Shown in pieces: positions 10,993 to 56,954 of a stretch of DNA of 64,000 bases; positions within the stretch are counted from its first letter, which is position 1; each line of letters opens with the position of its first letter. The translations under genes were made by a program, and so were the position numbers. Under the pieces are notes generated by a model. That model was not told the origin of the DNA, made no database searches, and saw nothing but the letters and a program-made list of their open reading frames with translations. Location: positions 66,229 to 130,228 of the forward strand of contig DATJZY010000025.1 in NCBI GenBank assembly GCA_035577985.1, in the 5' to 3' direction. The stretch is from Candidatus Eiseniibacteriota bacterium. Its GTDB lineage: Bacteria > Desulfobacterota > Binatia > DP-6.

Positions 10993-12510
10993 ATGTCCGA
11001 GGAGTCAGAGCTTCAAGTCAGACGGGAGCGTGACCTCTATCTTCGACTCTTGCGGCTGGGCGACGCACAGGAGCTCGAGCCCTTTCTTCGCGAGGCCCTC
11101 GCGCTCATCGTCGAGGTGACCGGCGCACGCCTCGGCTACCTGCAGGTCGACGACGTCGACCATGATCCCGCGGGCGAGGGGTGGTGGATGCAGCACGGTT
11201 TCTCGGAGGGGGAGCTCGCCCAGGTGCGAGCCAGCATCTCGCAGGGGATCGTGGCGCAGGCGCTCGAGACCGGCGAGACGATCATGACGGCGTCGGCCCT
11301 CCTCGACCCGCGCTTCCGCGAGCGCGGGAGCGTCCGCGCCAGCCGCATCGAGTCGGTGCTGTGCGCGCCGATCGGCCGTGATCCGCGCCTGGGTGTGCTC
11401 TACCTGCAGGGCCGCACCGAGCCCGGGACCTTCACGGAGGAGGATCGATCGAACGCCGAGGTGTTCGCGCGCCACCTGGCGCCGCTGGCGGACCGACTGC
11501 TCACGCAGGAGCGGCGGCGGATCGACACCGACGCCACGCGCGCGGCTCGCCTGCGCCTGCGCGCCGACGGCGTGATCGGGCGCAGCGCCGCGCTCGCCAG
11601 GGTCCTCCAGCAGGTGGCCCTCGTGGCGCCGCTCGAGCTGTCCATCCTGCTCACGGGCGAGACCGGAACCGGCAAGAGCCAGCTCGCGCGCGTGATCCAC
11701 GACAACAGCCTGCGGGCGTCGGGTCCGTTCATCGAGCTCAACTGCGCCGCGCTCCCGGACAACCTGATCGAGAGCGAGCTGTTCGGGGCCATGCCCGGCG
11801 CCCACTCGACGGCGACCAAGCGGATCGAGGGCAAGCTCGCCGCCGCCACGCAGGGGACGCTCCTGCTCGACGAGGTCGGCGACCTCTCGCTGCCGGCGCA
11901 GGCGAAGCTCCTGCAGCTCCTGCAATCGGGGGAATACTTTCCGCTGGGGGCCGCGCGGTCCATCCGCGCCGACGTCCGCATCATCGCCGCGACCAACACG
12001 GATCTCGCCGCCGCGATGGCCGAGCACCGCTTCCGCGAGGATCTCTTCTACCGGCTGCACGTGCTGCCGATCCACGTGCCGAGCCTCGCCGAGCGGCGGG
12101 ACGACATCGGCGCGCTCGCCCAGTACTTCTGCGCCCAGGCGAGCGAGCGGCATCGGCTGCCGCACGTCGGCATCTCGCCGTACGCCCAGCGGGCGCTCGA
12201 GGCCGCGGAGTGGCCCGGCAACGTGCGCCAGCTCGCGCACAGCGTCGAAGCCGCCACCATCCGCGCCGCGGCGACCGGCGCGCGCTGGGTCGAGCGCGGC
12301 CACTTCTTCCCCGAGACGGGATCGAACGGGACCGAGCACAACGGACAGCTGACGTTCCAGGAGGCGACGCGGCGCTTCCACGTGAAGCTGCTCCGCGACA
12401 CGCTGGACGAATCTGGATGGAGCGTGATCGAGGCCGCCCGCCGTCTCGACCTCGCGCGCTCGCACGTCTACAACCTGATCCGCGCCCTCGGCATCGAGCG
12501 CCCGAAGTAG
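10993..12510 (+). CDS. Sigma-54-dependent transcriptional activator with N-terminal GAF domain (second copy)
   Basis: Walker A GETGTGKSQ, ESELFG, C-terminal HTH; 505 aa. Confidence 0.9.
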   Translation: MSEESELQVRRERDLYLRLLRLGDAQELEPFLREALALIVEVTGARLGYLQVDDVDHDPAGEGWWMQHGFSEGELAQVRASISQGIVAQALETGETIMTASALLDPRFRERGSVRASRIESVLCAPIGRDPRLGVLYLQGRTEPGTFTEEDRSNAEVFARHLAPLADRLLTQERRRIDTDATRAARLRLRADGVIGRSAALARVLQQVALVAPLELSILLTGETGTGKSQLARVIHDNSLRASGPFIELNCAALPDNLIESELFGAMPGAHSTATKRIEGKLAAATQGTLLLDEVGDLSLPAQAKLLQLLQSGEYFPLGAARSIRADVRIIAATNTDLAAAMAEHRFREDLFYRLHVLPIHVPSLAERRDDIGALAQYFCAQASERHRLPHVGISPYAQRALEAAEWPGNVRQLAHSVEAATIRAAATGARWVERGHFFPETGSNGTEHNGQLTFQEATRRFHVKLLRDTLDESGWSVIEAARRLDLARSHVYNLIRALGIERPK

Positions 12511-12584
12511 CTTCCGCGTCCACGATCGTGGACACGGCGTCAACACCGCGCGACGCCGCGGCGGCGGTTCCGTGCGCAATCCCG

Positions 12585-12600
12585 TGGCACCCGTCTTGCT
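12585..12600 (+). promoter_or_regulatory. Sigma-54 (-24/-12) promoter, consensus-perfect
   Basis: TGGCAC-ccgtc-TTGCT at 12585-12600 matches TGGCAC-N5-TTGCW exactly; about 75 nt downstream of the EBP stop, same strand. Confidence 0.6.
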
Positions 12601-12613
12601 CCGGAAAGACGGC

Positions 12614-12856
12614 ATGACGGGTAGCTGGTTGCAGACGGTACGCGGGAACGTGCGCTTCCTGCACAGGCGCGTCCCGCGACGGCGTCGGGCCTATGGCACC
12701 TGTGCCGCCTGCGGCGTGGCGCTCGAAGGGGCCGCCGATGGGTGGGAAGCGGCCGAGACACAGCTCCGCCGGCACGAGCTGGCGTGCCCACGCGACCGGC
12801 ACCCGGCGCCCAGACGCTCGGCAGCACCGAGGCTGGGCGCGGTCTCATCGACCTGA
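12614..12856 (+). CDS. Candidate small (80 aa) Cys-containing protein immediately downstream of the sigma-54 promoter (speculative)
   Basis: ATG 12614 sits 2-4 nt after the predicted +1; CxxC (GTCAACG) and C...H; moderate GC3 bias; Arg-rich, so it could be a spurious ORF. Confidence 0.2.
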   Translation: MTGSWLQTVRGNVRFLHRRVPRRRRAYGTCAACGVALEGAADGWEAAETQLRRHELACPRDRHPAPRRSAAPRLGAVSST

Positions 12857-12895
12857 CCTTCCTGGCGCAGATCTCCCTCCGCGCCGGGTGACGGG

Positions 12896-12926
12896 CTCCG
12901 CGGGGCCGCCTGTCGGCCCCGCGGAG
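12896..12926 (+). terminator. Perfect 12-bp GC stem / 7-nt loop hairpin (candidate terminator or attenuator; no U-tract)
   Basis: CTCCGCGGGGCC gcctgtc GGCCCCGCGGAG read directly from the sequence. Confidence 0.35.
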
Positions 12927-12929
12927 CGC

Positions 12930-12983
12930 GACCGTTCGGGCCCCGGAGTAGCCGGCCTGCAACCCCCGGCCGACCGTTCGGGC
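12930..12983 (+). promoter_or_regulatory. Two identical 12-bp direct repeats GACCGTTCGGGC (AlgR/LytTR-like half sites) upstream of lytS
   Basis: Copies at 12930-12941 and 12972-12983 (42-bp spacing); core CCGTTCG matches the P. aeruginosa AlgR box CCGTTCGTC; lies 74-127 nt upstream of the LytS start. Confidence 0.4.
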
Positions 12984-13056
12984 GAAACTGCTCGCGCGCG
13001 GGCGCCCGGCGCGCAACCGTAGTCGGTGAGGCCCGGCCTGCGGTAGCATCGGCGCC

Positions 13057-14190
13057 ATGGTCTCGGCCGACATCGTCATGAAGCGACCGTTCCTTCGAGA
13101 TCGCATGTTCCAGGTCGTGCTCGCCATGGGCGCGGCCGTGGGCCTCCACCTGGGCCTCCTCCACCTCTTCCTGTGGAAGACGGCGGCCGCCCCGCTCACC
13201 TTCTTCGTGTGCGCGCTCGTCTTCGCGTCCGTCGCCTACGCGCTGCAGCGATGGATCTTCCCGGCGCTCTCACGGCCGTCCTTCGCTGCCCAGGTGACGC
13301 TCGAGGTCGTGGCCGCGACGATCGCCTTCGGCGCGCTGTCGGTGGTGGTCGCATCGACGGTGGCGTACCTCCTGGGCGCGCCGCCGCTCTTCGGCAGCCC
13401 CACCGGAGCGGAGGAGCACATCCTCATCACCCCGGCGATGCGGCAGGCTGGCGTCCGCATGTACGCCCTCATGCCGATCGTGCCCACCGTCATCTCGTCG
13501 GTCATCGGCTATCACCTCGTCTGGCGGCGTATGGAGACGCTGCAGACCCGGGCGCAGGAGCTGACCGAGCTCGCCGCGACCGCACAGCTCGCCGCCCTGC
13601 GGGCGCAGATCAATCCGCACTTCCTGTTCAACAGTCTCAACTCGATCGCGCAGCTGATCCACGTCGACCCCGCCAAGGCCGAGGCGTGCGTCGAGCGGCT
13701 GGCCGAGATCTTCCGCTACCTCCTGCACCGCGCCGAGCAGGAGTTCGTGCCGCTCGCGGACGAGCTCCAGATGACGACGGCCTACCTCGAGATCGAGCGC
13801 GCGCGGTTCGACGAACGGCTGCGGGTCGAGACGCGCGTCGATCCGCGGAGCCTGCGGCGCCTGATTCCGAACCTGATCCTGCAGCCCCTGGTCGAGAACG
13901 CGGTGAAGCACGGCCTCTCGCGCAAGGTCGGGCCCGGCACGCTGCGCATCGACGCGCTGGTCGAAGACGAGATGCTGACGCTCGTCATCGGCGACGACGG
14001 GCTCGGCATGTCGTCCTCGGTGCTCGATTCGGTGTACGACCGCGGCGTCGGCCTGCGCAACCTGCGCGCCCGCCTCGAGCGCCTCTATGGGCCGTCGCAC
14101 CTGCCCGAGATCACGAGCACGCCCGGCGGCGGCACTCGCGTGTGCTTGCGCCTGCCCACGCGCGACGCCCTGCCACGCCAGGCGGCATGA
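13057..14190 (+). CDS. LytS/YehU-family sensor histidine kinase (5TM + His_kinase + HATPase_c)
   Basis: N-terminal TM helices; INPHFLFNSLNSIAQL (LytS-type H box region); LQPLVENAVKHG and GxGLxN ATPase motifs. Confidence 0.85.
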   Translation: MVSADIVMKRPFLRDRMFQVVLAMGAAVGLHLGLLHLFLWKTAAAPLTFFVCALVFASVAYALQRWIFPALSRPSFAAQVTLEVVAATIAFGALSVVVASTVAYLLGAPPLFGSPTGAEEHILITPAMRQAGVRMYALMPIVPTVISSVIGYHLVWRRMETLQTRAQELTELAATAQLAALRAQINPHFLFNSLNSIAQLIHVDPAKAEACVERLAEIFRYLLHRAEQEFVPLADELQMTTAYLEIERARFDERLRVETRVDPRSLRRLIPNLILQPLVENAVKHGLSRKVGPGTLRIDALVEDEMLTLVIGDDGLGMSSSVLDSVYDRGVGLRNLRARLERLYGPSHLPEITSTPGGGTRVCLRLPTRDALPRQAA

Positions 14191-14948
14191 CATCGATCCG
14201 CACGCTCGTCGTCGACGACGAGAAGCTCGCGCGCGATCGCCTCATCGGGTTTCTCGCCAAGGTCGACGGGGTGGAGGTGATCGGGCAGGCGATCAACGGC
14301 GTCGAGGCCGTCGAACGCATCGAGCAGGACCAGCCGGACCTGGTGTTCCTCGACGTCCAGATGCCCGGCATGGACGGCTTCGACGTGCTGAAGTCGCTCT
14401 CGCGCCCCGCGCCGCAGGTGGTGTTCGCGACGGCCTACGACGAGTACGCGATCCGCGCCTTCGAGGTCCAGGCGGTCGACTACCTCCTGAAGCCGTTCGC
14501 CCGCGCGCGCGTCGAAGAAGCGGTGGGCCGCGTCCGGACGCGCCTCGATCACGGCACGCCCGGGCTCGACGTCGAAGCGGTGCTGAAGCGCCTCGAGGAC
14601 AGCCGCAAGGACCACGTGCGGCAGGTGCCGGTGCACGCGGGTAAGCGCATCCTGCTGCTCCCGGTGGAAGACGTCCTGTGGTTCGGCGTCGAGTATCGCC
14701 TGGTCTACGCGCACACGGCCGAGCGCGCCTACATGACCAACCTCACGCTGCGCGAGCTCGAGGAGCGCCTCGACCCCGACGCGTTCTTCCGGGCCCACAA
14801 GGCGAGCCTCGTGAACATGCGCCAGGTGCGCGAGATCGTCCCCTGGTTCGGTGGTCGCTACAAGCTCGTCATGAAGGACGGCGCGGCAAGCGAGGTCGCC
14901 GTCAGCCGTGCCCAGGCGCGGGAGCTGCGCACGAAGCTGCGCTGGTGA
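14187..14948 (+). CDS. LytTR/AlgR-family response regulator (REC + LytTR DNA-binding domain)
   Basis: LVVDDE...FLDVQMPGMDGF receiver; C-terminal LytTR domain (VPVHAGKRILLLPVEDVLWF...); ATGA overlap with the kinase stop. Confidence 0.85.
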   Translation: MTSIRTLVVDDEKLARDRLIGFLAKVDGVEVIGQAINGVEAVERIEQDQPDLVFLDVQMPGMDGFDVLKSLSRPAPQVVFATAYDEYAIRAFEVQAVDYLLKPFARARVEEAVGRVRTRLDHGTPGLDVEAVLKRLEDSRKDHVRQVPVHAGKRILLLPVEDVLWFGVEYRLVYAHTAERAYMTNLTLRELEERLDPDAFFRAHKASLVNMRQVREIVPWFGGRYKLVMKDGAASEVAVSRAQARELRTKLRW

Positions 14949-14968
14949 TCGATGGCACCGCGGCGAGG

Positions 14969-14997
14969 TTGACAGGTTTCGGCACCGTCCGTAGACC
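14969..14997 (+). promoter_or_regulatory. Candidate sigma-70-type promoter TTGACA-N17-TAGACC upstream of the VWA-exbBD operon (weak -10)
   Basis: TTGACA at 14969-14974, TAGACC at 14992-14997; flanked by GGCACCG direct repeats (14954, 14981). Confidence 0.25.
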
Positions 14998-15014
14998 CCA
15001 TCGGTCCCGCCTCG

Positions 15015-16265
15015 ATGTCGCCCCCCCCTCCTCCGGTCTCGTCCTTCCATCCCCGGGCCGCCCGCAGCGCCGTCGCGCTCCTGGTCTCGATCCTCCTCCA
15101 CGTCGTCTTCGTCGCGCTCGTGATCTTCGACGTGACGGGGCTCGGCGGCGGGTTCGGCATCGGCGTCGGTCCGGGCTTCGGCATCGGCAGCGGCGGCGGT
15201 CCCGGCCTCGGCGAACAGCAGCGGCGCGAGATCTTCTCGCTCGAGGACATCCCGGACCTCGTGCGGCCGCAGGAGCCGAACTCCGAGCAGGAGCTGACCG
15301 CATTGCTGGCGCCGCGCGAAGCCGAGCGCATCCTCGTCCCGCAGCCGGCGAAGCCCAAGACGGCGACGTCGACCAACGCGCCCGTCATCCAGTTCGCCCG
15401 ACCCGTGAAGCCGATCGGCGCCGGCACCGATCTCGGCGCGCGCCTCGCGGCGGCGGGCGCGGGCTCGGGCGGCATCGGCCTCGGCGGCGGAGGCGGTGGT
15501 CTCGGCTGGTCGCTCGGCAGCTCGTTCGGAAAATACGTCGGGGGGCTCCGCAAGGTCGGCCTCGACGTCGCCATCGTCGTCGACTCGACCGGCAGCATGC
15601 AGAACATCATCGACGACCTGAAGCGCCGCCTGCAGGACCTGGTGCGCACCATGCAGCGCCTCGTCCCGACGGCGCGCATCGGCGCCGTCGCCTATCGCGA
15701 CCGCACCGACGACAAGGTCGCGACCGCACCGCGGCAGAGCGAGGATTTCCTCGTGAAGTGGAGCGACCTCACCTACAACGCCTCGAAGGTGCAGTCCTTC
15801 CTCGGCGGCATCGTCGCCGAGGGCGGCGGCGACTGGAAGGAAGCCGTGAAGGAAGGGCTCGAGACGGCGATGAAGCAGCTCAAGTGGCGCCCCGATGCCA
15901 AGAAGGTGATCATCATCGTCGGCAGCTCACCGCCGCACGACGAAGATCTCCCCGCCATCCGGAACCTCATCGCCGACTGGCGCGCGCGCAACGGCTACGT
16001 GAGCACGATCGACGTCAGCTATCCGCTCCACGCCGAGCACGAGCGCAAGCTCAATCGCTGGCTCTACGGCGAGGAGCCGAAGGAGATCTCGCCGCTGCCC
16101 GAGTTCTACAAGGAGCTGCAGCAGAGCTTCCACGAGATCTCGAAGCAGGGCGGCGGCACGGACGTCGCGCTGGGCGAGGACGCGGCGCTGGTGCGCAACG
16201 TGCTCGTGCTGGCATTCGGGTCGCAGTGGGAGAAAGAGGTGGGCCGCGTCGCACGCGGCCGGTAA
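15015..16265 (+). CDS. Membrane-anchored von Willebrand factor A (VWA) domain protein with TonB-like N-terminal architecture
   Basis: Single N-terminal TM helix ([20 protein letters not shown]), Gly-rich then Pro/Lys-rich linker, C-terminal VWA with MIDAS DxSxS (VVDSTGSM). Confidence 0.75.
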
Positions 16266-16290
16266 CGACTATGCTACGAGGAGCACCGTA

Positions 16291-16950
16291 ATGGAGAACG
16301 CCGTCAACCCCGTGGACCTCAGCTTCTGGACCTTGATCCAGCAGGGCGCGATCTCGACCTATCCCCTGCTCATCTGCTCGGTCATCGTGGTGGCCGTCGC
16401 GCTCGAACGCGCCTGGGCGCTGCGCGGCGCGCTCGCCGCGGCGCCCGCGCTCGCGGCGCGCATTGCGCCGACGCTCGCCAACGGCGACGCGAAGAACGCG
16501 ATCGCGACGCTGGCGCAGGCCCCCGCCACCGCTGCGCGACGCGTCTTCGCCGACATCCTGGCCGAGCCGGGGCTCGAACGGACCGAGCTCGAGCGGATCG
16601 CCGACGAACGCCAGTTCGAGGAGGCCCAGGAGGCCGGATCCTATCTCTGGATCCTCGGCACGATCGGATCGTCGGCGCCGTTCATCGGCCTGTTCGGTAC
16701 GGTGATGGGCATCATCCGCTCGTTCCACAGCATGGCGATCGCCGGCACCGGCGGCTTCGGCGTCGTCGCGGGCGGCATCTCCGAGGCGCTGATCGCAACC
16801 GCGCTCGGGCTCGCGGTCGGCATCCTCGCGGTCGTCCTCTACAACTACTTCCAGGCGCGCGTGGAACGCATCGACGCGGCCCTGCAGATCGGCAGCGCTC
16901 GGGTCGTGGAAGCGCTCATGGCCGGACGGAGAGCGCATGGCGTTCGGTAA
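16291..16950 (+). CDS. MotA/TolQ/ExbB-family proton-channel protein
   Basis: 219 aa, three TM helices, conserved TolQ/ExbB C-terminal TM2-TM3 block ([24 protein letters not shown]...[17 protein letters not shown]); GAGGAG RBS. Confidence 0.85.
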
Positions 16951-17341
16951 GGCCCATCGCCGCGGCCAGATCGTCGCCGAGATCAACGTCACGCCGCTGA
17001 CGGACGTATTCCTGGTCCTCCTCATCATCTTCATGATCACCACCTCGGCCATGGTGAAGCCCGCGGCCGACGTGAACCTGCCCGAGACCGCCGAGGACAA
17101 CCAGGAGACCCAGGGCGTCATGGTGACCATGACGCCGAGCAAGCAGATCTACGTCGGCGATCGCTCGGTCGAGGGCGACGACGCGGCGGTCGTGAGCGCG
17201 CTCAAGGACGCGCTCGCGCGCGCCAAGCAGAAGGTCGTGATCCTCGCCGGCGACCGGCAGGTCGTGCTCGGCGAGGTCGTTCGCGTGCTCGGGCTTGCCA
17301 AGGAGGCGGGCGCGTCCGGCTTCGCCCTGGCCTCGGAGTGA
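16937..17341 (+). CDS. ExbD/TolR-family biopolymer transport protein
   Basis: 134 aa; [19 protein letters not shown] signature TM; overlaps the ExbB stop. Confidence 0.85.
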
Positions 17342-19479
17342 TCGCCCGCGCCTTCTGCCTGGCGACCCTGATCGTCCTCGGGGTCGCGGCCGCCCTGCGC
17401 GCCGAGAGCCTCGGCGAGCTCGAGCGCCGGGCGAAGGCGTTCTACGACCTGCTCGAGCGCGGGCAGAAGGAGCAGGCCGCCGCGATCTTCCCCGACCTGG
17501 AGAAGGCCCTCGCCTCGACGCTGGACGACCTGCAGGAGCGGCTCGATCGCATGCGCGACGAGGTGATGGAGCGCGACGGCGACATCGAAGCGCTCTACAA
17601 GGAATCGCGCTGGCGCGACCCGGAGATCGCATCGCTGGTCATCACCTATCATCTGGCGTGGGTCCGCTATCAGGGCGCGCAGCTCACGACCGACCAGCGC
17701 CGCAAGAATCAGCTCCTCGACAAGGCGGTCGAGGGCTTCTCGCAGTTCCTGGTCGTGAACGAGGTTCCCGAGGTGTACGCCGAGAGCCAGTACGGGCGCG
17801 GCCTCGCGTTCCTGGACCTCGGCAACTACGCGCAGGCGCGCGACGACCTCGAGGCCGCCGCGAAGGATCCGCGCACTGCCGCCAAGGCGCGATCGGCGCT
17901 CGCCGAGCTGGCGCGACGGCAGGGCGGCAAGGCGAGCAAGGAGCCGGCTCCCGACGATCCCGAGACGCTCCTCGCGCAGCTCGGCGACGCGCTGCCGAAG
18001 GTGGCGAGCAACGCGGCGCTGGAGAAGGACACGACGGCCCTCGCCCGCGGTCTCGCGGCCCGCGGCGGCGACTGGCCGAAGCGCGTCGACGGCACGATCG
18101 CGACCAAGCTCGGCAACGGCACCCCGAGCGGCGTCACGTCGAGCTACGGCCTTCTCCTCCTGGCCCAGCTCGCGATCGATCGTAATCGCTGCGCAGACGT
18201 CGCGCCGCTCGCCGACGCGGGCGGCGCGGTGAAGGACGCGACGCGCGCGCGCTATCGGCCGGAGCTGCTCTACCTCGACGCCGGCTGCCTCATGAACGCG
18301 GGGAAGACGCGCGAGGCCGCCCAGGCGTTCGAGGAGCTGCTGCGCGACTTCCCGGATGCGGCGCGCGCGCGCGACGCCGCCTACTACCGCTTCCGCGCGC
18401 TCGACGTCGCACGTGCGAGCGACGCGTCGCTCGCAGCCGCGTACGAGGACGCACTCACGACCTTTGCGACGCGCTTCCCGAAGGACGACGCGGTCGGCGA
18501 GGCGCGCTACCAGCTGGGCGAGCTCTTGCGCAGTCGCGGCGACTGTCCGAAGGCCGAGGCGGAGTACGCACACGTCACGGCCGGTCCGTTCGCGACGCGC
18601 GCGCGCCTGGGCGCGCTCGAATGCGCGGTGGGCGCGCTCGTAAAGGCCGGCAAGGACGCCCCGCCGGAGCAGCGCCGCGCGCTCCTCGAACGCCTGCGCG
18701 CCTTCGTGCGCGACGTGCCCGCCAAGGGCGCCGACGAACAGGCCGTCGCGCGCGCGGCCCTCATGGGCGGTCTCGTCGCGGCAGACGCGCGCCCACCCGA
18801 CTCCGCGGCGGTGGTCGAGTTCCTCGACAAGTACGAGACCCGGTTCCCGGCCGCGAAGGAATGGCACGCGACGGCGGTCCAACGGCGCCTCGTCGCGCGC
18901 GTGGCGCTCGGGCAGCTCGACGCCGCGGAGCGTGACCTCGACGCGTACCTCGCCGCCGGTCCCGAGGCCGACCGCCGGCGCGTGCTCGACGACCTCGGGC
19001 GCGCGCTCCAGAAGCAGCTCGACGACCCCGACGAGGCGAAGCGACGCGCGGCGCTCGCGCTCGCACGCAAGGTCTACGGCGCTCTGGTGGCGAGCGGCGG
19101 TGAGACCGCCGACCGCGTGGCGCTCGCCGACCTCGAGCTGCGCGGCGGCAACGCCGCCGACGCGCGGCGGAGCTACGACGAGGTGCTGGCGAAGGATCCG
19201 ACCTCGGCCGAGGCGATGCGCGGCGCCGCGCGGGCGGCGGCGGCGCTCGGCGATCGTGCGGGCGCGCTCGCGCGCTGGAAGCAGGTGGTCGAGACGAGCC
19301 CGACCGGCGGCACCGGCTGGTACGAAGCGCGCATCGCCCAGGTGAAGCTCTTCCTCGACGCCGGCCAGAAGGGCGAAGCGTGCGAGGTCGCGCGCCTGTC
19401 CATCGGCAAGTCGACCACCACGGGCGGCGATCAGCTCGACAAGCAGCTCCGGCAGATCGCGACCGCGTCGTGTCGCTGA
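17338..19479 (+). CDS. Periplasmic tetratricopeptide-repeat (TPR) protein, 713 aa
   Basis: Signal peptide ([22 protein letters not shown]); repeated A/L/Y/R-rich helical TPR-like units; GTG start overlapping the ExbD stop (GTGA). Confidence 0.7.
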   Translation: MIARAFCLATLIVLGVAAALRAESLGELERRAKAFYDLLERGQKEQAAAIFPDLEKALASTLDDLQERLDRMRDEVMERDGDIEALYKESRWRDPEIASLVITYHLAWVRYQGAQLTTDQRRKNQLLDKAVEGFSQFLVVNEVPEVYAESQYGRGLAFLDLGNYAQARDDLEAAAKDPRTAAKARSALAELARRQGGKASKEPAPDDPETLLAQLGDALPKVASNAALEKDTTALARGLAARGGDWPKRVDGTIATKLGNGTPSGVTSSYGLLLLAQLAIDRNRCADVAPLADAGGAVKDATRARYRPELLYLDAGCLMNAGKTREAAQAFEELLRDFPDAARARDAAYYRFRALDVARASDASLAAAYEDALTTFATRFPKDDAVGEARYQLGELLRSRGDCPKAEAEYAHVTAGPFATRARLGALECAVGALVKAGKDAPPEQRRALLERLRAFVRDVPAKGADEQAVARAALMGGLVAADARPPDSAAVVEFLDKYETRFPAAKEWHATAVQRRLVARVALGQLDAAERDLDAYLAAGPEADRRRVLDDLGRALQKQLDDPDEAKRRAALALARKVYGALVASGGETADRVALADLELRGGNAADARRSYDEVLAKDPTSAEAMRGAARAAAALGDRAGALARWKQVVETSPTGGTGWYEARIAQVKLFLDAGQKGEACEVARLSIGKSTTTGGDQLDKQLRQIATASCR

Positions 19480-19491
19480 CGCTTCGGCCGT

Positions 19492-20037
19492 TCAGGTCGC
19501 CGCCGCGCGGCGCGGATCGGGGACCGAGAGCTGCACGACGACGCCGGGCTTCACCTTGAGCGTCCCGAGCAGCGCGCTGTAGGGCTGGATGCCGAAGTCG
19601 GGCTGGTGGAGCTGGACCTCGGCCGTCCAGCGCTCTCCCGACCGCCGCAGCGGTACGGCGACCTCGCGCTCCGCGCCGTGCAGGGTCAGGCGGCCGACGA
19701 CGTCGAAGCCGTCCGCGACCTCGACGACGCGCGTCGAGCGGAAGCGGATCTCCGGGTAGCGGTTGGCGTCCAGCACGTCGCGCCGGGCGTTGTCCTCGAT
19801 CGTGCGGCGGTCGGCGTCGGAGAGGGTGGTCGGCGGCAGCTCGGCCCCGTCGCGCAGCACCTGCCGGACGCGGAGCGAGGCCGCATCGAAGCTCGCGTCG
19901 ACCTCGCGCCGCGCCTCGTCGATCCGCAGGTCGAAGCGGGTCACCTCGAGCGCGAGGTCGTGACCGAAGCCGGAGAGCAGTCCCTCGCGGAACGTGAGGA
20001 CCCGGCAGACGGCGGCCGGCGGACCGAGACGGATCAT
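19492..20037 (-). CDS. YceI-like family protein
   Basis: Domain-sized (about 180 aa) beta-barrel sequence with typical central HGxxR/E motif (LTLHGAEREV); start at MIRLGPP. Confidence 0.55.
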   Translation of the reverse strand: MIRLGPPAAVCRVLTFREGLLSGFGHDLALEVTRFDLRIDEARREVDASFDAASLRVRQVLRDGAELPPTTLSDADRRTIEDNARRDVLDANRYPEIRFRSTRVVEVADGFDVVGRLTLHGAEREVAVPLRRSGERWTAEVQLHQPDFGIQPYSALLGTLKVKPGVVVQLSVPDPRRAAAT

Positions 20038-21628: not shown

Positions 21629-23119
21629 GTGGACCCTGCGGCGGTGGCGGAGAATGGAGGGGTCACGGCCGTCGTGCTCGGCGGCAGCGTCGCCGGGCTC
21701 GCGACGGCCCGCCTGCTCGCGCGGCATTTCGACCGCGTGATCGTGCTCGAGCGCGACGTCCGTCCCGAGGTCGACGGACCCGAGACGGCCTTCGCATCGT
21801 GGCAGCGTCCTGGCGTTCCGCAGTTCCGCCATTCCCACGCATTCCTCGCCCGGCTGCGGCTCGTGCTCCTGGCGCACATGCCGGACGTGCTCGAGCGCCT
21901 GCGCACCGCGGGCGTGCGCGAGATCCAGCTCGCCGAGACCGTGCCGCCCGGCATGACGTGGGCGCCCGCGCCCGGCGACGACGACGTGGTGCTGCTCGCC
22001 TGTCGCCGTGCGACGTTCGAGTGGGCACTGCGCGAGAGCGTGCGCGCCCTGCCGACCGTCGAGTTGCGCGAGGGCGTCGGCGCGGCGGGTCTCACGGCGA
22101 TCGGCCGCGACGGGAGCCGTCCGCAGGTGAGCGGCGTGCGTCTCGACGACGACGGCGTGCTCCCCGCAGCGCTCGTCGTCGATGCGAGCGGGCGGCGCTC
22201 GCGCGCCGTGCAGTGGCTGGAGGCACTCGGCACGGCGCGGCCACGCGAGAAGTCGAGCGACACCGGCATCCTCTACTACACGCGTTTCTACCGCCTCCTG
22301 CACGGCAAGCCGCCGACCGGCGGCACGGGGCTCGTCGCGGGCGACGTCGGCTGGGTGAAGCTGGCGATCTTCCCCGGCGACCACGGCACGTTCTCGATCA
22401 CCGTCGGTCCGCCGGTCGACGACGCGGCGTTGAAGCGCCTCGGCGATCCGGAGCAGTTCGAGCGCTTCGTGGGCGCCTTCCCCACGATCGCGCCGTGGCG
22501 CGCTCCCGGCACCTCGGAGCCCATCTTCGGCCGCTCGACGCCCGTCCTCGTCATGGGCCAGCTCCGAAATCGCCTCCGCCACTTCGTCGACGACGAGGGG
22601 CCGCTCGCGCCCGGCTTCGTCGCGGTCGGCGACGCGGCCTACCACTCGAATCCGATCTACGGCCGCGGCTGTCCGTCGGCGCTCATGATGGTCGAGCTGC
22701 TCGACGAGGCGATCGGCCGCCATCCCGACGATCCGATCGCGATGGGCCGCCACTACCATGCGGCGTGCGAGACGCACGTGCGGCCGTTCTGGGACGCGGC
22801 GGTCGGATCCGATCGCCGGATGCTCGGCGAGCGCCGCCGCCTCGCGACCAACGGCCGAGCGGCGCTCGTGCAGATGGCCGAAGAGGCGTTCGCCTGGCTC
22901 TTCGACCGCGGCATCGGTCCCGCGACGCGCGTCGATCCGGTCGTCTTCCGCGGGCTCCTGCGCGTCTTCCACATGCTCGACGTGCCCGAGCAGCTCCTGC
23001 TCAACCCCGAGATCGTCCTGCGCTCGCTGCCCGTGCTGGCGCGCGTGCTGCGGGGCGACGTTCCGCCGCAGCAGTTCCCGCCGATCGGGCGCGAGCAGGT
23101 GCTCGCACGGCTCGGGTAG
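21629..23119 (+). CDS. FAD-dependent oxidoreductase/monooxygenase
   Basis: N-terminal dinucleotide-binding motif VVLGGSVAGLATARLL; GD motif region (VAVGDAAYHSNPIYGRG). Confidence 0.7.
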   Translation: MDPAAVAENGGVTAVVLGGSVAGLATARLLARHFDRVIVLERDVRPEVDGPETAFASWQRPGVPQFRHSHAFLARLRLVLLAHMPDVLERLRTAGVREIQLAETVPPGMTWAPAPGDDDVVLLACRRATFEWALRESVRALPTVELREGVGAAGLTAIGRDGSRPQVSGVRLDDDGVLPAALVVDASGRRSRAVQWLEALGTARPREKSSDTGILYYTRFYRLLHGKPPTGGTGLVAGDVGWVKLAIFPGDHGTFSITVGPPVDDAALKRLGDPEQFERFVGAFPTIAPWRAPGTSEPIFGRSTPVLVMGQLRNRLRHFVDDEGPLAPGFVAVGDAAYHSNPIYGRGCPSALMMVELLDEAIGRHPDDPIAMGRHYHAACETHVRPFWDAAVGSDRRMLGERRRLATNGRAALVQMAEEAFAWLFDRGIGPATRVDPVVFRGLLRVFHMLDVPEQLLLNPEIVLRSLPVLARVLRGDVPPQQFPPIGREQVLARLG

Positions 23120-23188
23120 GCACCTGCTCGGGCTCGTTGACGGCCGTTCCCGGCCCGCGCTAGACGCCGCGGCGGGGGCGAGACTGGC

Positions 23189-23743
23189 ATGTCGACGTAT
23201 GGGCCCGTGGCCGCGCTGGCCCTCTCGACCTCCGCGGCCGTCATCCTTGCCACCGGTTGCGACCTTCGAAGCGATCGCATGCGACCGTCCGTCGGCCCCC
23301 CCGCCACGGGCCTCGGCGCGCACGTCGTTCGCACCGTCGAGGTCTCGTCGGCCCTCTCGATGCCGTCGCTGCGCGTGGTCACGCCGGAGATGCTGCGCGA
23401 CGTGCTGCAACGCGCCCTCACCGACGCCGGCGCGTACGGCGCCGGCGGCCGCTACGTGCTGCACACGAAGATCGTGAGGCTCGAGGGCGGCGGATCGGGC
23501 ATCGGCTTCAACCGCTACGCGCTCGTCGCGATCGACAATCGGCTCGTGGACGATCGCGATCCCGCTTGGAACTGGCACGACGAGGCGTCGGCGAGTCCGG
23601 GCATGCTCCCCATTCCCGGGCAGACGTTCGCCGGGATGGATGCGCAGCGCGAGGCGTTCGAGGCGGCGGTGAGCAACGTAGCCGGCCAGACCGCACGCGC
23701 CGTGCGTGACACGCTCGAGCGTCGATCCAAGGAGAGCCCATGA
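23189..23743 (+). CDS. Hypothetical lipoprotein
   Basis: Signal peptide with lipobox ILATGC; ATGA overlap with the following giant gene. Confidence 0.55.
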   Translation: MSTYGPVAALALSTSAAVILATGCDLRSDRMRPSVGPPATGLGAHVVRTVEVSSALSMPSLRVVTPEMLRDVLQRALTDAGAYGAGGRYVLHTKIVRLEGGGSGIGFNRYALVAIDNRLVDDRDPAWNWHDEASASPGMLPIPGQTFAGMDAQREAFEAAVSNVAGQTARAVRDTLERRSKESP

Positions 23744-26700
23744 CGAAACCCCTGTCGATCGCCGCGCTCTGGGTTGCCCTTCTCCTGCCGAGGCCGATCG
23801 TCGCCGCCACCATCACGGTCGCCACGACCGACGACACGAACGCGGTCGCCTGCACGCTGCGCGACGCGATCACGGCCGCCAACACCGACGCCGTGAGCGG
23901 CGCGTGCCCGGCCGGGGCCGGTGACGACACGATCGACCTCAGCGGTCTCGGCGGAACGATCCTGCTCGGAGCCGCGCTCCCCGGGATCACGACGAACATG
24001 ACCCTGCGTGGTCCGGGAGCGCACGTCCTCACCATCAGCGGACAGGACAGCGTGCAGGTCTTCGTCGTGACGGGCCCGACCGTCACGATCTCCGACGTGA
24101 CGATCGCGCACGGCCTCGCTGCCGGCTCTGGTCGGGGCGGCGGTGTCGAGACCCTCGCGGGCTCGGTCGCCCTCACGCTGTCGCGCGTCGTGATCACACT
24201 CTCTCAGGGCTTCAACGGCGGTGGGATCGCGAACGACGGGGGCGGAACCATGACGATCGTCGACAGCGCGATCGTCGGCAACACCACGACCGGCAACGCC
24301 GGCGCGGGCATCTTGAGCGCCCATTCTTCGACGCTCGTCCTCACCAACACGACCGTGGCCGGGAACACCAACACGGGATTGGACCGCGCGGGCGCGGGAC
24401 TCCTGCTCTCTCGTGGCACGGCGACGATCACCAACTGCACCTTCGCCAACAACGTTGGCACGAGCACGGGCGGGTGGGAGATCATGAACCTGGTCCCGAT
24501 GGAGGACCCCGTCGGTACCCTGCATTTGAAGAACACGATCGTCGCCAACCAGTCCGGCCACGGCTGCCTCGGGCCGATCACGTCGGGCGGCCACAACCTC
24601 TCCGACGACACGACCTGCGCGCTCGCGGGCCCCGGCGATCTCCAGGGCGTCGCCGCGGGCCTCAGCGCACTCGGCGACCACGGCGGTCCGACGCCGACTC
24701 TGGCGCTCGTCGCCGGGAGCCCGGCGATCGACGCCGGAGATGCGGCCGCGTGTCCCCCCGCCGACCAGCGCGGGGTCGGCCGGCCGGTCGACGGCGACGC
24801 CAACGGAAGGGCCGGCTGCGACATCGGCGCCTACGAGGTCGGCTGCGGCGACGGGATCCCTCCGAACAGCCGGTGCGCGCCCGACGCGAATCCATGTACC
24901 GACGACGTGTGCGACGCCCTCGGCGCGTGCCAGCATCCGACTGCCGCGACCGGAGCGCCCTGCGACGATGGGGACCACTGCACGCTCGGCGACACCTGCG
25001 CGAGCGGCGTCTGCTCGGCCGGCACGACCCCGGGGTGCCCGGCAGTGGGAAGCCTCACCTACCGCACCTGCATCACCGGCGAGCTCGAGACGGGCCCGGC
25101 GGGAACGAACGCGTGCACGCAGATCGCCGGCGCCACCTCGGTCGCCCAGCACTCGGGTCTCGACAACCTGCGATCGGTGACCGAGAGCGCGGACGGGATC
25201 TCGCTGTACGTCACGTCCGGCAACGACGACGCCGTCGCACGCTTCGACCGGGATCCCACGACCGGAGCGCTCGCGTACCAGGGGTGCATCTCGGGCGCGA
25301 TCGAGACCGGCCCCACGGGCACGAGCGCCTGCGCGCAGATCCCGAGCGCCACCACGGCCGGACAGAGCTCCGGGCTCGATTTGCCGCAGGCGATCGCGCT
25401 CAGCCCGGACGGGAAGTCGCTCTACACCGCGTCCCTCACGGACGACGCGGTCGCCCGTTTCGACCGGGACACCGCGACGGGTGCCCTCACCTACCGCGAC
25501 TGCCTCACCGGGAAGTCCGAGGCGAACGACACCGCCTGTACCAAGATCCCGAGCGCGAGCTCGTCGGGCATCGATTCGGGTCTCGACTCCCTGTCGGCTC
25601 TGGTGGTGAGCACGGACGGAAAGTCGCTCTACACGGTCTCGCGCGACGACGACGCCGTCGCGCGCTTCGATCGCGACACGGCGACCGGCGCCCTCACCTA
25701 CCAGGGCTGCATCACCGGCGAGACCGAGAGCGGGCCCGCCGGCACGGGCGCGTGTGTGCAGATCGGGAGCGCCGCCTCGGGGGGCGCGAACTCCGGGCTC
25801 GATGACCTCTTCTCGCTGGCAGTCAGCGCGGACGGGAAGTCCCTGTACGCCGTCTCCCTATTGGACGATGGGGTCGCTCGCTTCGCCCGCGATCCGGGGG
25901 CGGGCGCCCTCGTCTACCAGGGCTGCATCAGCGGCGAGATCGAGAGCGGCCCCACCGGCACCGGCGCCTGCGCCCAGATCGGCGCCGCGGCGTCGTCGGG
26001 CGTCAACTCCGGGCTCGATGCGCTCTACGCGATCGTCGTCAGCCCCGACGACAAGTCGGTCTACACGGTCTCGCAGGAGGACGACGCCGTCGACCGCTTC
26101 GACCGCGATCCGGGAAACGGCGCGCTCACCTACCAGGGCTGCATCACCGGCGAGACCGAGAGCGGTCCGGCAATCCCGATCCCAGGCACCGGTGCGTGCG
26201 TCGAGATCGCGAGCGCCACCTCGCGCGGAACGAACTCGGGACTCGACAAGCTGCGCTCGATGGCGGCGAGCCCGGACGGGACGTCGCTCTACGTCGCCTC
26301 GCCGCAGGACGACACGATCGCGCACTTCGTGCGTGACCCCATGAGCGGTGCGCTCACCTACGAGAGCTGCATCACGGCGGAGGCAGAGACCGGCCCTACG
26401 GGGACGAACGCCTGTGCCCAGATCCCGAGCGCAACCTCGTTCGGCACGAACTCCGGCGTCGACAATCCGCAGGCATTCCTCGTGAGCCCCGTCGGGCTCC
26501 AGCTCTACACGAGCTCCGGGAACGACGCGGCCGTGGCGCGCTTCGACCGCGAGCCCGAGCCGCCGCCCACGACGACGACCACGACGCTGCCCGGGCAGGC
26601 GATCCGCGGCAAGCTCCTCCTCATCGTCGACGGCACCGACGCCAAGAAGCGCAAGATCGTCTTCAAGGCGAAGGATGCGAGCATCGACACCAGCGCGGGC

Positions 26701-27108
26701 AGCGGCATCGATCCGGTCACGGACGGGGCCGTGTTCCAGGTCTTCAACGATGCGGGCACGGGGGACTCGGCCTGCTTCGATCTTCCCGCGGCCGGATGGA
26801 CGAGGAAGGGCAAGCCGGCCAAGCCGACGTTCCGCTATCGGGACAAGAAGTTCGCGATGGGTCCCTGCAGCCTCACGACCGTCCAGGACGCCAAGTCGCT
26901 CGTGGTCGTGTGTCAGGCGAAGGTGCGGCCGATCGACTACTCGCTCGACCAGCCCGCACAGCAGCGGGTGGGCGTGCGCTTTCGCAGCGGCGGTACCGAG
27001 TACTGCACGGTCTTCGGGGGCAAGGTCCTGAAGGACAAGCAGAAGACAAAGTTCCGGGCGAAGAACGCGCCGGCGGCGTGTCCGGCGGCGCCCGTCGCCT
27101 GTCCCTGA
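23740..27108 (+). CDS. Giant secreted multidomain protein: right-handed beta-helix (ending CDIGAYE) + Myxococcus-type Cys-rich repeat + about 10 beta-propeller repeats + Thr-rich linker + C-terminal domain
   Basis: Signal peptide MTKPLSIAALWVALLLPRPIVA; GGGIANDGGGTMTIVDSAIVGNTTTGNAGAGI beta-helix repeats; PDANPCTDDVCDALGAC; repeats SPDGKSLYxxSxxDDAVARFDRDxxTGALTYQGCITGExESGPxGTGAC. Confidence 0.75.
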   Translation: MTKPLSIAALWVALLLPRPIVAATITVATTDDTNAVACTLRDAITAANTDAVSGACPAGAGDDTIDLSGLGGTILLGAALPGITTNMTLRGPGAHVLTISGQDSVQVFVVTGPTVTISDVTIAHGLAAGSGRGGGVETLAGSVALTLSRVVITLSQGFNGGGIANDGGGTMTIVDSAIVGNTTTGNAGAGILSAHSSTLVLTNTTVAGNTNTGLDRAGAGLLLSRGTATITNCTFANNVGTSTGGWEIMNLVPMEDPVGTLHLKNTIVANQSGHGCLGPITSGGHNLSDDTTCALAGPGDLQGVAAGLSALGDHGGPTPTLALVAGSPAIDAGDAAACPPADQRGVGRPVDGDANGRAGCDIGAYEVGCGDGIPPNSRCAPDANPCTDDVCDALGACQHPTAATGAPCDDGDHCTLGDTCASGVCSAGTTPGCPAVGSLTYRTCITGELETGPAGTNACTQIAGATSVAQHSGLDNLRSVTESADGISLYVTSGNDDAVARFDRDPTTGALAYQGCISGAIETGPTGTSACAQIPSATTAGQSSGLDLPQAIALSPDGKSLYTASLTDDAVARFDRDTATGALTYRDCLTGKSEANDTACTKIPSASSSGIDSGLDSLSALVVSTDGKSLYTVSRDDDAVARFDRDTATGALTYQGCITGETESGPAGTGACVQIGSAASGGANSGLDDLFSLAVSADGKSLYAVSLLDDGVARFARDPGAGALVYQGCISGEIESGPTGTGACAQIGAAASSGVNSGLDALYAIVVSPDDKSVYTVSQEDDAVDRFDRDPGNGALTYQGCITGETESGPAIPIPGTGACVEIASATSRGTNSGLDKLRSMAASPDGTSLYVASPQDDTIAHFVRDPMSGALTYESCITAEAETGPTGTNACAQIPSATSFGTNSGVDNPQAFLVSPVGLQLYTSSGNDAAVARFDREPEPPPTTTTTTLPGQAIRGKLLLIVDGTDAKKRKIVFKAKDASIDTSAGSGIDPVTDGAVFQVFNDAGTGDSACFDLPAAGWTRKGKPAKPTFRYRDKKFAMGPCSLTTVQDAKSLVVVCQAKVRPIDYSLDQPAQQRVGVRFRSGGTEYCTVFGGKVLKDKQKTKFRAKNAPAACPAAPVACP

Positions 27109-27186
27109 GCTGCGCGCAGGGCCTCGCGATCCTCACCGCGCGCCTGCCCTTTCTGCTTGCCCGCGAGGGGGATCCGGATAGGCTGT

Positions 27187-28059: not shown

Positions 28060-28099
28060 TCGCTTGAACCGTCGTTCCGACATGGACTAGGAGCGACCG

Positions 28100-43323: not shown

Positions 43324-44094
43324 CTACTCGACCGGCACGACGAACCCTTCGCTCTCCTCGGTCTCGACGTCCTCGATGGAAACGCGCGCCTCCCGGTACG
43401 TGCCAGGGGGGTAGACGAGGAACCCCACGGCCGACTGCTGGGCGGCGATCGGCTTCGGTCCGAAGAGCTCGGCGCGGAGCTTGCTCCCGGCGGCGTTGCC
43501 CGCGATCGCAGCGTCGAGGGCGCCGCCCGCCAGGGGCTGGCGCGACGTTCCGTCGGCGTCGACCAGCGAGAGGCGTGGCGCATCCAGACGCACCTTGCGG
43601 TCGGTGTTGTTGCGGACGGTCACCCGGACGGGAACGGCTCCGCCGACGGTCGCGACGTCACCCAGGTCGAGCTTCGCCTTGAAGGTGCCGATCTGCTCGA
43701 CGAGCACCTGCAGACCGACGCTCTTCCACGGCGTCTCGACGTCGGGTCGCTGGACGAGCGTCTTGAAGCTGTAGCCGAAGGCCCGGCTGAACTCGAAGTC
43801 GCCGGGAAGGAGGCCTTCCTCGACCGGCTGCAGGTCGGCGCCCTGCGCCGTGCACCGGATCACGACGCGGCCGGACCGTGCCTTGCCGTCGGGACCGACC
43901 TTCGTCCCGGAGACCATACCGGAGCTGTTCGGCGTCGCTTGCACGAGACCGGTCACGGTGTAGCCCATGGCCTCGAAGGTCTTGTTGGCCACGCGGGTCG
44001 CTCGATCGCAGTCGAGACCCGGCCGGTCGATGGCGTACTGCGTCGGCGCCGGGCAGGCGGAGAGCAGAAGCGCGAGCGCCAGGAGACACCGCAT
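43324..44094 (-). CDS. Hypothetical lipoprotein
   Basis: MRCLLALALLLSAC lipobox; beta-rich sequence. Confidence 0.5.
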   Translation of the reverse strand: MRCLLALALLLSACPAPTQYAIDRPGLDCDRATRVANKTFEAMGYTVTGLVQATPNSSGMVSGTKVGPDGKARSGRVVIRCTAQGADLQPVEEGLLPGDFEFSRAFGYSFKTLVQRPDVETPWKSVGLQVLVEQIGTFKAKLDLGDVATVGGAVPVRVTVRNNTDRKVRLDAPRLSLVDADGTSRQPLAGGALDAAIAGNAAGSKLRAELFGPKPIAAQQSAVGFLVYPPGTYREARVSIEDVETEESEGFVVPVE

Positions 44095-50166: not shown

Positions 50167-50246
50167 CTTCAGCAATCCACCATCCGGCATTGTGCCGGGA
50201 ATCCCCGCGGGTTGCGAGGCAGCCACGCCGCTTCTATGGTCGACGC

Positions 50247-56799: not shown

Positions 56800-56954
56800 G
56801 CTCCTCCCTACTCACGGCTCCCGCCGAGGTGTCAACGCTTTTCTGCTCGACGTGTCACGATCGGCACAGGCCCAGGGCAAAAAGGGATGCACGGCTTGTA
56901 ACGCCTCCCGAGCCACGGGATGGTGCCGAACGCTTCGATGGAGCGTGGGATCGC

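Follow-up and report, generated by a model that had tools for sequence, protein, structure and literature searches.

Organization of the locus

The window analyzed here (64,000 nucleotides of contig DATJZY010000025.1, assembly GCA_035577985.1; G+C content of about 70%) contains a cluster of six genes, which encode a membrane histidine kinase, a response regulator with a LytTR domain, a membrane-anchored von Willebrand factor A (VWA) protein, the ExbB/TolQ-type and ExbD/TolR-type subunits of a putative motor, and a periplasmic tetratricopeptide repeat (TPR) protein (Table 1). In an initial annotation the last four genes had been taken as an energy-transducing module in which the VWA protein occupies the place of TonB or TolA. 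The cluster was studied by sequence analysis and structure prediction. Six intact open reading frames (ORFs) are present on the plus strand between positions 13057 and 19479, with the high third-position G+C of real genes. The same six genes were recovered when genes were called independently on the source contig, and every Pfam assignment scored above the curated cut-offs. The positions and domain calls of the six genes were thus borne out by the ORF check, by Pfam and by the independent gene call.

The gene junctions were read directly from the sequence. The kinase and regulator genes share an ATGA (14187–14190), exbB and exbD have 14 nt in common (ATG at 16937, TAA at 16948–50), and the exbD and TPR genes share a GTGA (17338–41). 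The gap between regulator and VWA genes is 66 nt, and the stop codon of the VWA gene (TAA, 16263–65) precedes the exbB start (16291) by 25 nt, which include a GAGGAG ribosome-binding site. Of the coupling that had been proposed for the last four genes, the part concerning exbB, exbD and the TPR gene stands, since these overlap; the VWA gene is set apart by its 25-nt gap. The same arrangement was seen in every close relative examined, far above chance. The NCBI labels give no support for the Myxococcota, the group in which a survey had been suggested: identical proteins carry the NCBI label 'Candidatus Eisenbacteria', and the nearest relatives are metagenome-assembled genomes (MAGs) labelled 'Candidatus Binatia' or 'Deltaproteobacteria'.

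A scan of positions 12300–19700 with Rfam gave nothing credible. The PADLOC defence-system models did not match the VWA, ExbB, ExbD, TPR or kinase proteins, and for the regulator they yielded weak matches to the receiver domain only. PADLOC thus gave no assignment to a motor-based anti-phage system (for example Zorya).

Table 1. Position of the module genes, the candidate lipoprotein gene and the predicted control elements in the window. Lengths are in amino acids.
Feature	Position	Strand	Basis
Membrane histidine kinase, 377	13057..14190	+	Pfam PF06580 (3.6e-27), HATPase_c PF02518 (1.9e-10)
Response regulator, receiver and LytTR domains, 253	14187..14948	+	Pfam LytTR (3.2e-26), Response_reg (9e-25)
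TonB/TolA-like VWA protein, putative transducer, 416	15015..16265	+	Pfam VWA / VWA_2 (1e-8)
ExbB/TolQ-type motor subunit, presumed part of a pentamer, 219	16291..16950	+	Pfam MotA_ExbB (3.5e-30, 104.8 bits)
ExbD/TolR-type motor subunit, 134	16937..17341	+	Pfam ExbD (7.8e-23, 81.4 bits)
Periplasmic TPR protein, N-terminal signal peptide, 713	17338..19479	+	Several TPR Pfam families
Predicted lipoprotein, candidate fifth component, 256	43324..44094	-	Family hidden Markov model, lipobox LLSAC, Pro at +2
Upstream CGACCGTTCG box, predicted LytTR/AlgR-type binding site	12929..12938	+	Direct copy, 42 nt from the second box
Promoter-proximal CGACCGTTCG box, predicted binding site	12971..12980	+	85 nt upstream of the kinase ATG
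Promoter-like element, kinase and regulator genes	13020..13049	+	Weak -35 TAGTCG (13020–25), 18 nt, -10 TAGCAT (13044–49)
Internal sigma-70-like promoter element, before the VWA gene	14969..14997	+	TTGACA (14969–74), 17 nt, TAGACC (14992–97)

Architecture of the VWA protein

A structural model of the VWA protein was built by AlphaFold2 with 34 diverse full-length homologues (26–65% identity to the window protein). Residues 14–41 form a transmembrane helix (predicted local distance difference test, pLDDT, above 90), residues 42–170 a linker of about 130 residues that is disordered (pLDDT below 50 over most of its length), and residues 171–416 a globular head (pLDDT above 90). In Foldseek, the best matches to the head were integrin beta-I domains (E of 2e-10 over about 262 aligned columns). 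The metal-site motif D190-x-T192-x-S194 of the head is near-invariant, and D190 and E276 are present in all 34 homologues. In the helix, Ser25 and His29 were each found in 33 of the 34 sequences, and their spacing (Ser-x3-His) equals that in the motor-docking motif of TonB (S16/H20) and TolA (S18/H22). The helix is preceded by Arg14 and Arg17 and followed by an Asp, from which a topology with the N-terminus inside and the head in the periplasm is predicted.

The length of the linker varies from 85 to 144 residues across the 34 homologues. Within the close clade (110 sequences) a segment of 13 residues, 70–82, is strongly conserved, and this segment is a candidate for a strand that would be offered to ExbD, as is done by TonB. 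A short alternating hydrophobic stretch following the helix was recognized by eye in most homologues. No TonB_C or TolA domain was matched in the VWA protein by Pfam (E ≤ 0.1), such a fold was not found by Foldseek either, and no NCBIfam model matched the protein. With a helix bearing Ser-x3-His, a disordered linker and a globular head, the protein has the layout that a VWA anchor in the role of TonB or TolA had been expected to have.

The motor subunits and the TPR protein

Gap-free alignment to the structure-solved proteins of Escherichia coli placed T137, E165 and T170 of the window ExbB at T148, E176 and T181 of E. coli ExbB, and the transmembrane Asp23 of the window ExbD at Asp25 of E. 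coli ExbD. Because these residues of the proton path are kept in both proteins, the motor looks active. Against the NCBIfam models, the window ExbB scored 98 bits for TolQ (cut-off 221) and 82 bits for ExbB (cut-off 206), and the window ExbD scored 89 bits for TolR (cut-off 127) and 58 bits for ExbD (cut-off 153). Since all four scores are below the equivalog cut-offs, the two proteins form, by this measure, a subfamily that is distinct from the TolQ/TolR and ExbB/ExbD equivalogs.

The TPR proteins of the different module types described below could be aligned end to end, with 21–32% identity, which indicates that they constitute a dedicated family and are not generic neighbours. For the window protein, identity over such full-length alignments to the other module types was 21–57%. 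Residue C682 is nearly invariant, and further cysteine positions recur in the consensus. The NCBIfam model TIGR02795, which describes the YbgF/CpoB repeat, gave three repeat matches in the window protein with a score of 68 bits (cut-off 90); the score for the CpoB model NF008068 was 21 bits (cut-off 383). The likeness to CpoB/YbgF noted in the initial annotation is therefore one of repeats, below the threshold of TIGR02795.

Conservation of the module in other genomes

Hundreds of homologues of the VWA protein were found in metagenomes, and 95 homologues were obtained at E ≤ 1e-30 among representatives clustered at 50% identity. A genome scan (one genome per species), with a profile from a narrower VWA alignment, returned 80 loci (referred to below by L numbers), which were annotated with the six window proteins and with Pfam. 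The genes for the VWA, ExbB, ExbD and TPR proteins remain clustered, with at least four different gene orders, in about 50 species-level genomes, and the synteny is thus conserved well outside the genome under study. Type A has the order of the window (kinase, regulator, VWA, ExbB, ExbD, TPR) and occurs in Binatia-like genomes, with 63–69% identity of the VWA protein. The order is VWA, TolQ-like, ExbD, ExbD, TPR in type B; ExbB, ExbD, VWA, TPR in type C; and VWA, TPR, ExbB, ExbD in type D. An exbB gene near a VWA gene was also present in two alphaproteobacterial loci. No further gene around the four was conserved across all types.

Types A, C and D have an orthologous motor, with 43–54% identity for ExbB over most of the protein and 39–50% for ExbD. 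The VWA proteins of type B are 35–51% (mostly 41–51%) identical to that of the window, whereas type B ExbB shows 26–29% identity over most of the protein and is accompanied by two ExbD genes. The combination of a similar VWA protein with a distant ExbB points to one transducer family with two motor lineages, that is, to an apparent swap of the motor between types A, C and D on the one side and type B on the other. Two modules, one of type B and one of type C, coexist in a single MAG (L028 and L036).

The presence of the Ser-x3-His helix followed that of the motor. Of 48 VWA ORFs next to ExbB, 46–47 had the helix, as against none of the nine VWA matches without a nearby ExbB; one ORF at a contig end was ambiguous. 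The VWA proteins of the loci L057–L084 (Planctomycetota and others) are generic, lacking the Ser-x3-His helix and having no motor close by, and were left out of the family.

Some type C loci have a second, more distant ExbB-ExbD pair directly after the TPR gene (L040, 9434–10505; L035, 5112–5570), and a TonB-like ORF was not evident in the short flank beyond this pair in either locus. In L003 (ExbB, ExbD) and L013 (VWA, regulator) the module genes are split into several ORFs, which could reflect frameshifts of long-read assembly or real pseudogenization. Judging from the hundreds of metagenome homologues, members of the family are abundant among Binatia-like soil bacteria, and the role of the module may matter for the envelope biology of this large uncultured group.

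A lipoprotein gene near the TPR gene

Clustering of the genes that neighbour the modules yielded a family of predicted lipoproteins. The family model detected the gene just 3' of the TPR gene, in convergent orientation, at the majority of type A loci and at six of the nine type B loci (E of 1e-64 to 1e-120). In two close relatives (L086 and a second contig) the stop codon of the lipoprotein gene is 1 and 6 nt from the TPR gene. In Binatia chromosomes with a type C module, genes for weak DUF4352-like relatives follow the TPR gene at a distance of 2.4 kb. The window lipoprotein is identical to a 'hypothetical protein' of NCBI, and no Pfam family was found for it. Its AlphaFold2 model (pLDDT 85) has an alpha/beta domain like KA1, Flpp3 and BamC-N, and a DUF4352-like beta-sandwich. 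Cys29 and Cys81 are invariant. An acidic motif at the C-terminus, D-V-E-T-x-E-x-E-G-F, is highly conserved in type A and recognizable in type B. Judged by its synteny with the TPR gene, the lipoprotein could reasonably serve the VWA head as an anchor in the outer membrane or as its target there.

In the window, a block of 23.8 kb (19480–43323) that is absent in the relatives splits the TPR and lipoprotein genes. The block contains, among others, genes for YceI, an aldo-keto reductase, several large proteins with no or faint Pfam matches, an AraC-family regulator and esterases, and the genes for the lipoprotein, DUF488, DHHA1 and Ddl proteins lie beyond it. In L086, a JGI contig, L003 and L004 there is little or no space between the TPR and lipoprotein genes.

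Kinase, regulator and predicted control elements

The N-terminal 160 residues or so of the kinase are hydrophobic, with about four membrane segments as judged by eye and without a predictor, and a large periplasmic domain is absent. No 5TM-LytS/YhcK sensor domain was reported by Pfam (E ≤ 0.1). Because this domain is absent and about four membrane segments are present, the kinase is AlgZ/FimS-like in layout and not an orthologue of LytS; the layout suggests that an intramembrane or envelope signal would be perceived. The best NCBIfam match of the regulator was BtsR, with 192 bits against a cut-off of 246, and LytR was likewise below its cut-off. A search of the PDB with the regulator gave receiver domains only, among the matches listed, and is uninformative on a relationship to AlgR. 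The kinase/regulator pair accompanies the module in type A loci only; the other clades are without it. In some type C loci, on Binatia chromosomes (L040–L047, around 3700–4330), a PadR-family regulator gene, itself preceded by a histidine-phosphatase gene, lies directly before ExbB and so takes the position of the type A kinase/LytTR pair.

The regions upstream of the kinase gene were aligned for 10 type A loci, whose kinases are 45–67% identical to that of the window. The sequence CGACCGTT is invariant in all 10 regions, amid diverged flanks, and the box takes the form CGACCGTT(C)G. In 8 loci the nine-base GACCGTTCG begins 84–88 nt before the kinase start, and several orthologous loci also have weaker upstream copies of the box. 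The AlgR consensus CCGTTCGTC (PMC4064291) begins with the seven bases CCGTTCG, which form the core of the box. The number of boxes in the window is at chance (3 sites versus 1.5 expected), so that the evidence for the box lies in its conserved position and not in enrichment.

Further copies of the box are found at 2040–2048 on the minus strand (GACCGTTCG, between O-methyltransferase and glyoxalase genes) and at 1–8 on the plus strand (ACCGTTCG, at the edge of the window); as the counts are at chance level, these copies are probably not regulatory. The first CGACCGTTCG box is preceded, at a distance of a few bases, by a perfect inverted repeat with a 12-bp stem (12896–12926; CTCCGCGGGGCC-gcctgtc-GGCCCCGCGGAG), which has no T-tract and is located inside an intergenic region of 546 nt. 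A one-mismatch copy of the box, ACCGTCCG, directly before the VWA gene was considered as a LytTR-type site and rejected, as it is not conserved in relatives.

The promoter calls are based on conservation across loci; a generic promoter/terminator scan found nothing, and no terminator-like site was detected by it between the regulator and VWA genes. In the 10 aligned loci a TAnnnT motif is conserved 7–10 nt before the conserved kinase ATG, together with an upstream T(G/A)G(G/T)C block. In the window the kinase ATG at 13057 is 7 nt downstream of TAGCAT. This short distance suggests that the kinase mRNA is probably leaderless, and it supports the start at 13057, where the contig gene caller had chosen a start 16 codons later. 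Before the VWA gene, TTGACAG, a spacer of about 17–20 nt and TA(G/A)(A/G)nC are conserved in L002, L004, L006, L008, L010 and L011. Since the box precedes the two-component genes and the VWA gene has a promoter-like element of its own, the regulator may plausibly control the module, though indirectly. The two-component system would autoregulate and, by read-through, add transcription to that from a basal internal promoter.

The initial annotation had placed the module under the control of a LytS/LytTR pair. The LytTR pair and its box are indeed found in type A, yet the pair is limited to this clade and the box is not at the VWA gene. It had also drawn a parallel with AlgR and PilY1 of Pseudomonas; this has gained a DNA box that shares the AlgR core, and the link to PilY1 is still one of analogy.

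Proposed function of the module and alternative explanations

We consider it likely that the module is a machine of the TonB/TolA type, driven by the proton-motive force (PMF) and acting on the cell envelope, in which the usual C-terminal domain has been replaced by an integrin-like VWA head. ExbB and ExbD would form the proton channel and motor of the inner membrane, presumably in a 5:2 ratio. The N-terminal helix of the VWA protein, with Ser25 and His29, would dock outside the ExbB ring as is the case for His20 of TonB and His22 of TolA, and the flexible linker of about 130 residues would span the periplasm. The metal site of the head (D190-x-T192-x-S194, D273/E276) may bind an acidic residue of a partner, on which motor activity would then pull or which it would remodel. 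The conserved periplasmic TPR protein of 713 residues would be part of the complex, as an adaptor or as a target, and the conserved lipoprotein whose gene normally flanks the TPR gene is the leading candidate for an anchor or target in the outer membrane. In this clade the AlgZ/AlgR-like kinase and LytTR regulator would autoregulate via the CGACCGTTCG box and probably raise expression of the module by read-through, above the level set by the constitutive-looking internal promoter. A role in envelope tethering, adhesion or a motility-like process is likelier than one in nutrient import.

Several observations weigh against parts of this scheme. Of the SHLS motif only the Ser and His are conserved, the Leu at His+7 being present in 15 of the 34 homologues and a Ser/Thr at His+11 in 8. 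The Asp of the metal site that usually follows strand beta-4 is Ser304 in this clade. The linker of the window protein is Gly-rich (24% Gly, 9% Pro), unlike the Pro-rich linker of TonB, and a beta-strand 'motor box' was not seen in the AlphaFold2 model of the monomer. A 35-column profile of the helix gave chance matches in the PDB (E of 0.14–0.8) and no TonB or TolA, such a profile being too short to inform. Most loci of types C and D lack the lipoprotein gene, which in the window is separated from the TPR gene by about 24 kb. Finally, the predicted LytTR box is upstream of the two-component genes and not before the VWA gene.

Other explanations of the gene cluster were weighed on the same data. 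That the ExbB and ExbD proteins energize a distant canonical TonB, with the VWA and TPR genes as unrelated neighbours, is strongly disfavoured. Pairs of exbBD without an adjacent tonB are frequent in bacteria, and the view offered here is limited to 64 kb of the genome. However, at least four independent rearrangements have left the four genes in one cluster, and three of the genes have overlapping reading frames in the window. VWA proteins carry the TonB/TolA-type Ser-x3-His helix only where they are linked to a motor, and no TonB_C was found in the checked parts of the window. It is also improbable, although less so, that the VWA protein takes part in a Bat-like VWA-TPR complex, either as a subunit with an accessory, assembly or anchoring function or as a substrate, and that ExbB/ExbD serve only as scaffold or ion channel. 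Bat operons pair membrane-anchored VWA proteins with TPR proteins, VWA domains commonly serve as assembly modules, and the strong conservation of the Gly-rich linker within the clade would be unusual for a simple tether. Against this stand the tight correlation of the Ser-x3-His helix with motor adjacency and the retained proton-path residues, which argue for an active motor, as well as the lack of a match to the BatA N-terminal family and of MoxR or DUF58 genes in the locus.

A divergent Tol-Pal-like system, with the VWA protein as substitute for TolA, a CpoB-like TPR protein and the lipoprotein in the place of Pal, which would stabilize or constrict the outer membrane, is somewhat less remote than these two and still unlikely. 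It is a specific functional version of the preferred reading and does not contradict it. Although the motor proteins match TolQ (98 bits) and TolR (89 bits) better than ExbB/ExbD, and three YbgF/CpoB repeats of TIGR02795 are matched in the TPR protein, each of these scores is under its NCBIfam cut-off (98 versus 221, 89 versus 127 and 68 versus 90). A lipoprotein gene does lie beside the TPR gene in many loci, but its product has no OmpA or peptidoglycan-binding fold, and a TolB or Pal/OmpA-like gene is absent from every locus. Ddl and a SPOR-domain D,D-carboxypeptidase are encoded nearby in relatives, in keeping with a Tol-Pal-like task, whereas the two paralogous modules in a single MAG (L028, L036) fit specialized roles better than a housekeeping one.

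Returning to the machine with an integrin-like output, a more detailed form of it is offered as a speculation to which we give little weight. The metal site of the VWA head would grip the D-V-E-T-x-E-x-E-G-F motif of the lipoprotein, the TPR protein would act as scaffold and the motor would pull, together making a catch-bond-like tether whose level is set in this clade by the AlgZ/AlgR-like system via the CGACCGTTCG box. If this were true, the module would add a third branch, integrin-like in kind, to the PMF-driven transduction of force in the envelope.

TonB and TolA have long been the sole known routes by which proton energy of the inner membrane reaches the outer envelope of Gram-negative bacteria. 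If the integrin-like, metal-dependent output is real, the motor family powers more than import and outer-membrane stabilization. The locus provides handles for testing this: the four core genes, the candidate lipoprotein, and residues S25, H29 and D190 of the VWA protein and D23 of ExbD. It also offers a dedicated regulator whose predicted DNA site is precise, and the evidence for two motor lineages.

Other features of the window

Genes for sigma-54 activators, a thiolase-like protein, YceI and an aldo-keto reductase are among the neighbours of the module. Where the window was checked, TonB_C, TolA, TolB, Pal and a TonB-dependent receptor were not found; a canonical tonB adjacent to the module, against which the initial annotation had warned, was not found there either. 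A run of large plus-strand ORFs with no or faint family matches extends from 21629 to 32463 and encodes proteins of 496, 184 and 1122 residues, a DUF7305 protein, and proteins of 694 and 760 residues. The 1122-residue protein has beta-helix and lactonase-like repeats, and the run could be a cluster of surface or secreted proteins. At 36583–38265 (plus strand) a 560-residue protein is encoded that combines AAA_16/AAA_22 ATPase domains with a PG_binding_1 domain.

A bpMoxR AAA+ ATPase (PF20030, 1.3e-58), which marks MoxR-vWA-beta-propeller ternary systems, is encoded at 49941–51365 on the plus strand and is followed by large plus-strand ORFs up to about 54000. At about 50 kb, this gene is positionally unrelated to the ExbBD module. 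The gene at 56781–58799 (plus strand) encodes an MFS_1 transporter fused to a C-terminal zf-UBP domain (PF02148, 1.5e-11), which is unusual for a bacterial transporter.

Comparison with known systems

With the Ton system the module shares a motor of the ExbB/ExbD family with the essential Thr/Glu/Thr and Asp residues, and a partner composed of a Ser-x3-His helix, a linker and a head. It differs in that TonB_C is absent, the C-terminal 245 residues of the partner having the VWA fold; in the linker, which is Gly-rich where that of TonB is Pro-rich; and in the lack of a TonB-dependent receptor in the conserved neighbourhood. The resemblance to Tol-Pal consists of a motor that scores best against TolQ/TolR, a partner with the topology of TolA, a downstream TPR gene whose product matches YbgF-type repeats below threshold and, in relatives, a lipoprotein gene nearby. 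Unlike Tol-Pal, neither the locus nor its relatives encode a TolA C-terminal domain, TolB or a Pal/OmpA-like protein, and the TPR protein has 713 residues compared to about 260 in CpoB.

Bat operons differ from the locus in two respects: the window VWA protein has no BatA-type match in Pfam, and the locus has no MoxR or DUF58 gene. In the Agl-Glt gliding machinery of Myxococcus, a TolQR-type motor is functionally linked to TonB-like, TPR and VWA proteins (PMC9946355, PMC11761067). There the VWA protein CglB is an adhesin and a lipoprotein of the outer membrane, whereas that of the window is a predicted motor-docked component of the inner membrane; Glt genes are not present here, the GltE model of NCBIfam being matched marginally, with 16.8 bits against a cut-off of 225. 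Integrin beta-I domains have the fold of the VWA head, its D-x-T/S-x-S metal-site motif and conserved acidic residues, at an identity of 13–19%. The window protein is, in contrast, bacterial, single-pass and anchored in the inner membrane, and has no alpha-subunit partner. To AlgZ(FimS)/AlgR of Pseudomonas aeruginosa the likeness is one of layout, with a small PF06580 membrane kinase, a receiver-LytTR regulator and the CCGTTCG core; orthology is not established (the best curated matches, BtsR and LytR, are both below cut-off). Moreover, the box of the window precedes the two-component genes themselves, and pilus or alginate genes are not present.

The closest counterparts are the "vWA force transducers", a class proposed in silico (the Tichowtungia aerotolerans family; Mol Biol Evol 2025;42(6):msaf138, PMC12204202). 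Members have an inner-membrane helix with the SHLS/His motif, a disordered linker of about 100 residues and a C-terminal vWA domain, and their genes adjoin a tolQ-like gene, one or more tolR-like genes and an uncharacterized TPR gene. AlphaFold 3 models in that study placed the conserved His in contact with the motor, and no deletion phenotypes were reported for the class. The module can therefore not be called undescribed, as it had been in the initial annotation. The window module has all testable architectural features of the class, namely the Ser and His of the helix, the disordered linker, the vWA head and the synteny with tolQ/tolR-like and TPR genes, and its membership, judged by architecture and synteny as described in PMC12204202, is well supported. 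The type B loci correspond to the exact parts list given there for the Planctomycetes-Verrucomicrobia-Chlamydiae (PVC) group. The window differs from the published group in having a single ExbD instead of a heterologous pair, in its gene order (VWA-ExbB-ExbD-TPR instead of TPR-tolQ-tolR-tolR-vWA) and in its motor lineage, with 26–29% ExbB identity to type B. Its Binatia-like host belongs to a lineage not listed in PMC12204202, and LytTR, two-component systems and Binatia go unmentioned in that paper. Within the literature library that was searched, no further paper was found to link ExbB with such VWA proteins. To the published class, the window adds the upstream kinase and LytTR regulator and a Gly-rich linker. 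The clade-specific kinase/regulator pair with its box, the two motor lineages and the conserved lipoprotein gene go beyond what is described in PMC12204202.

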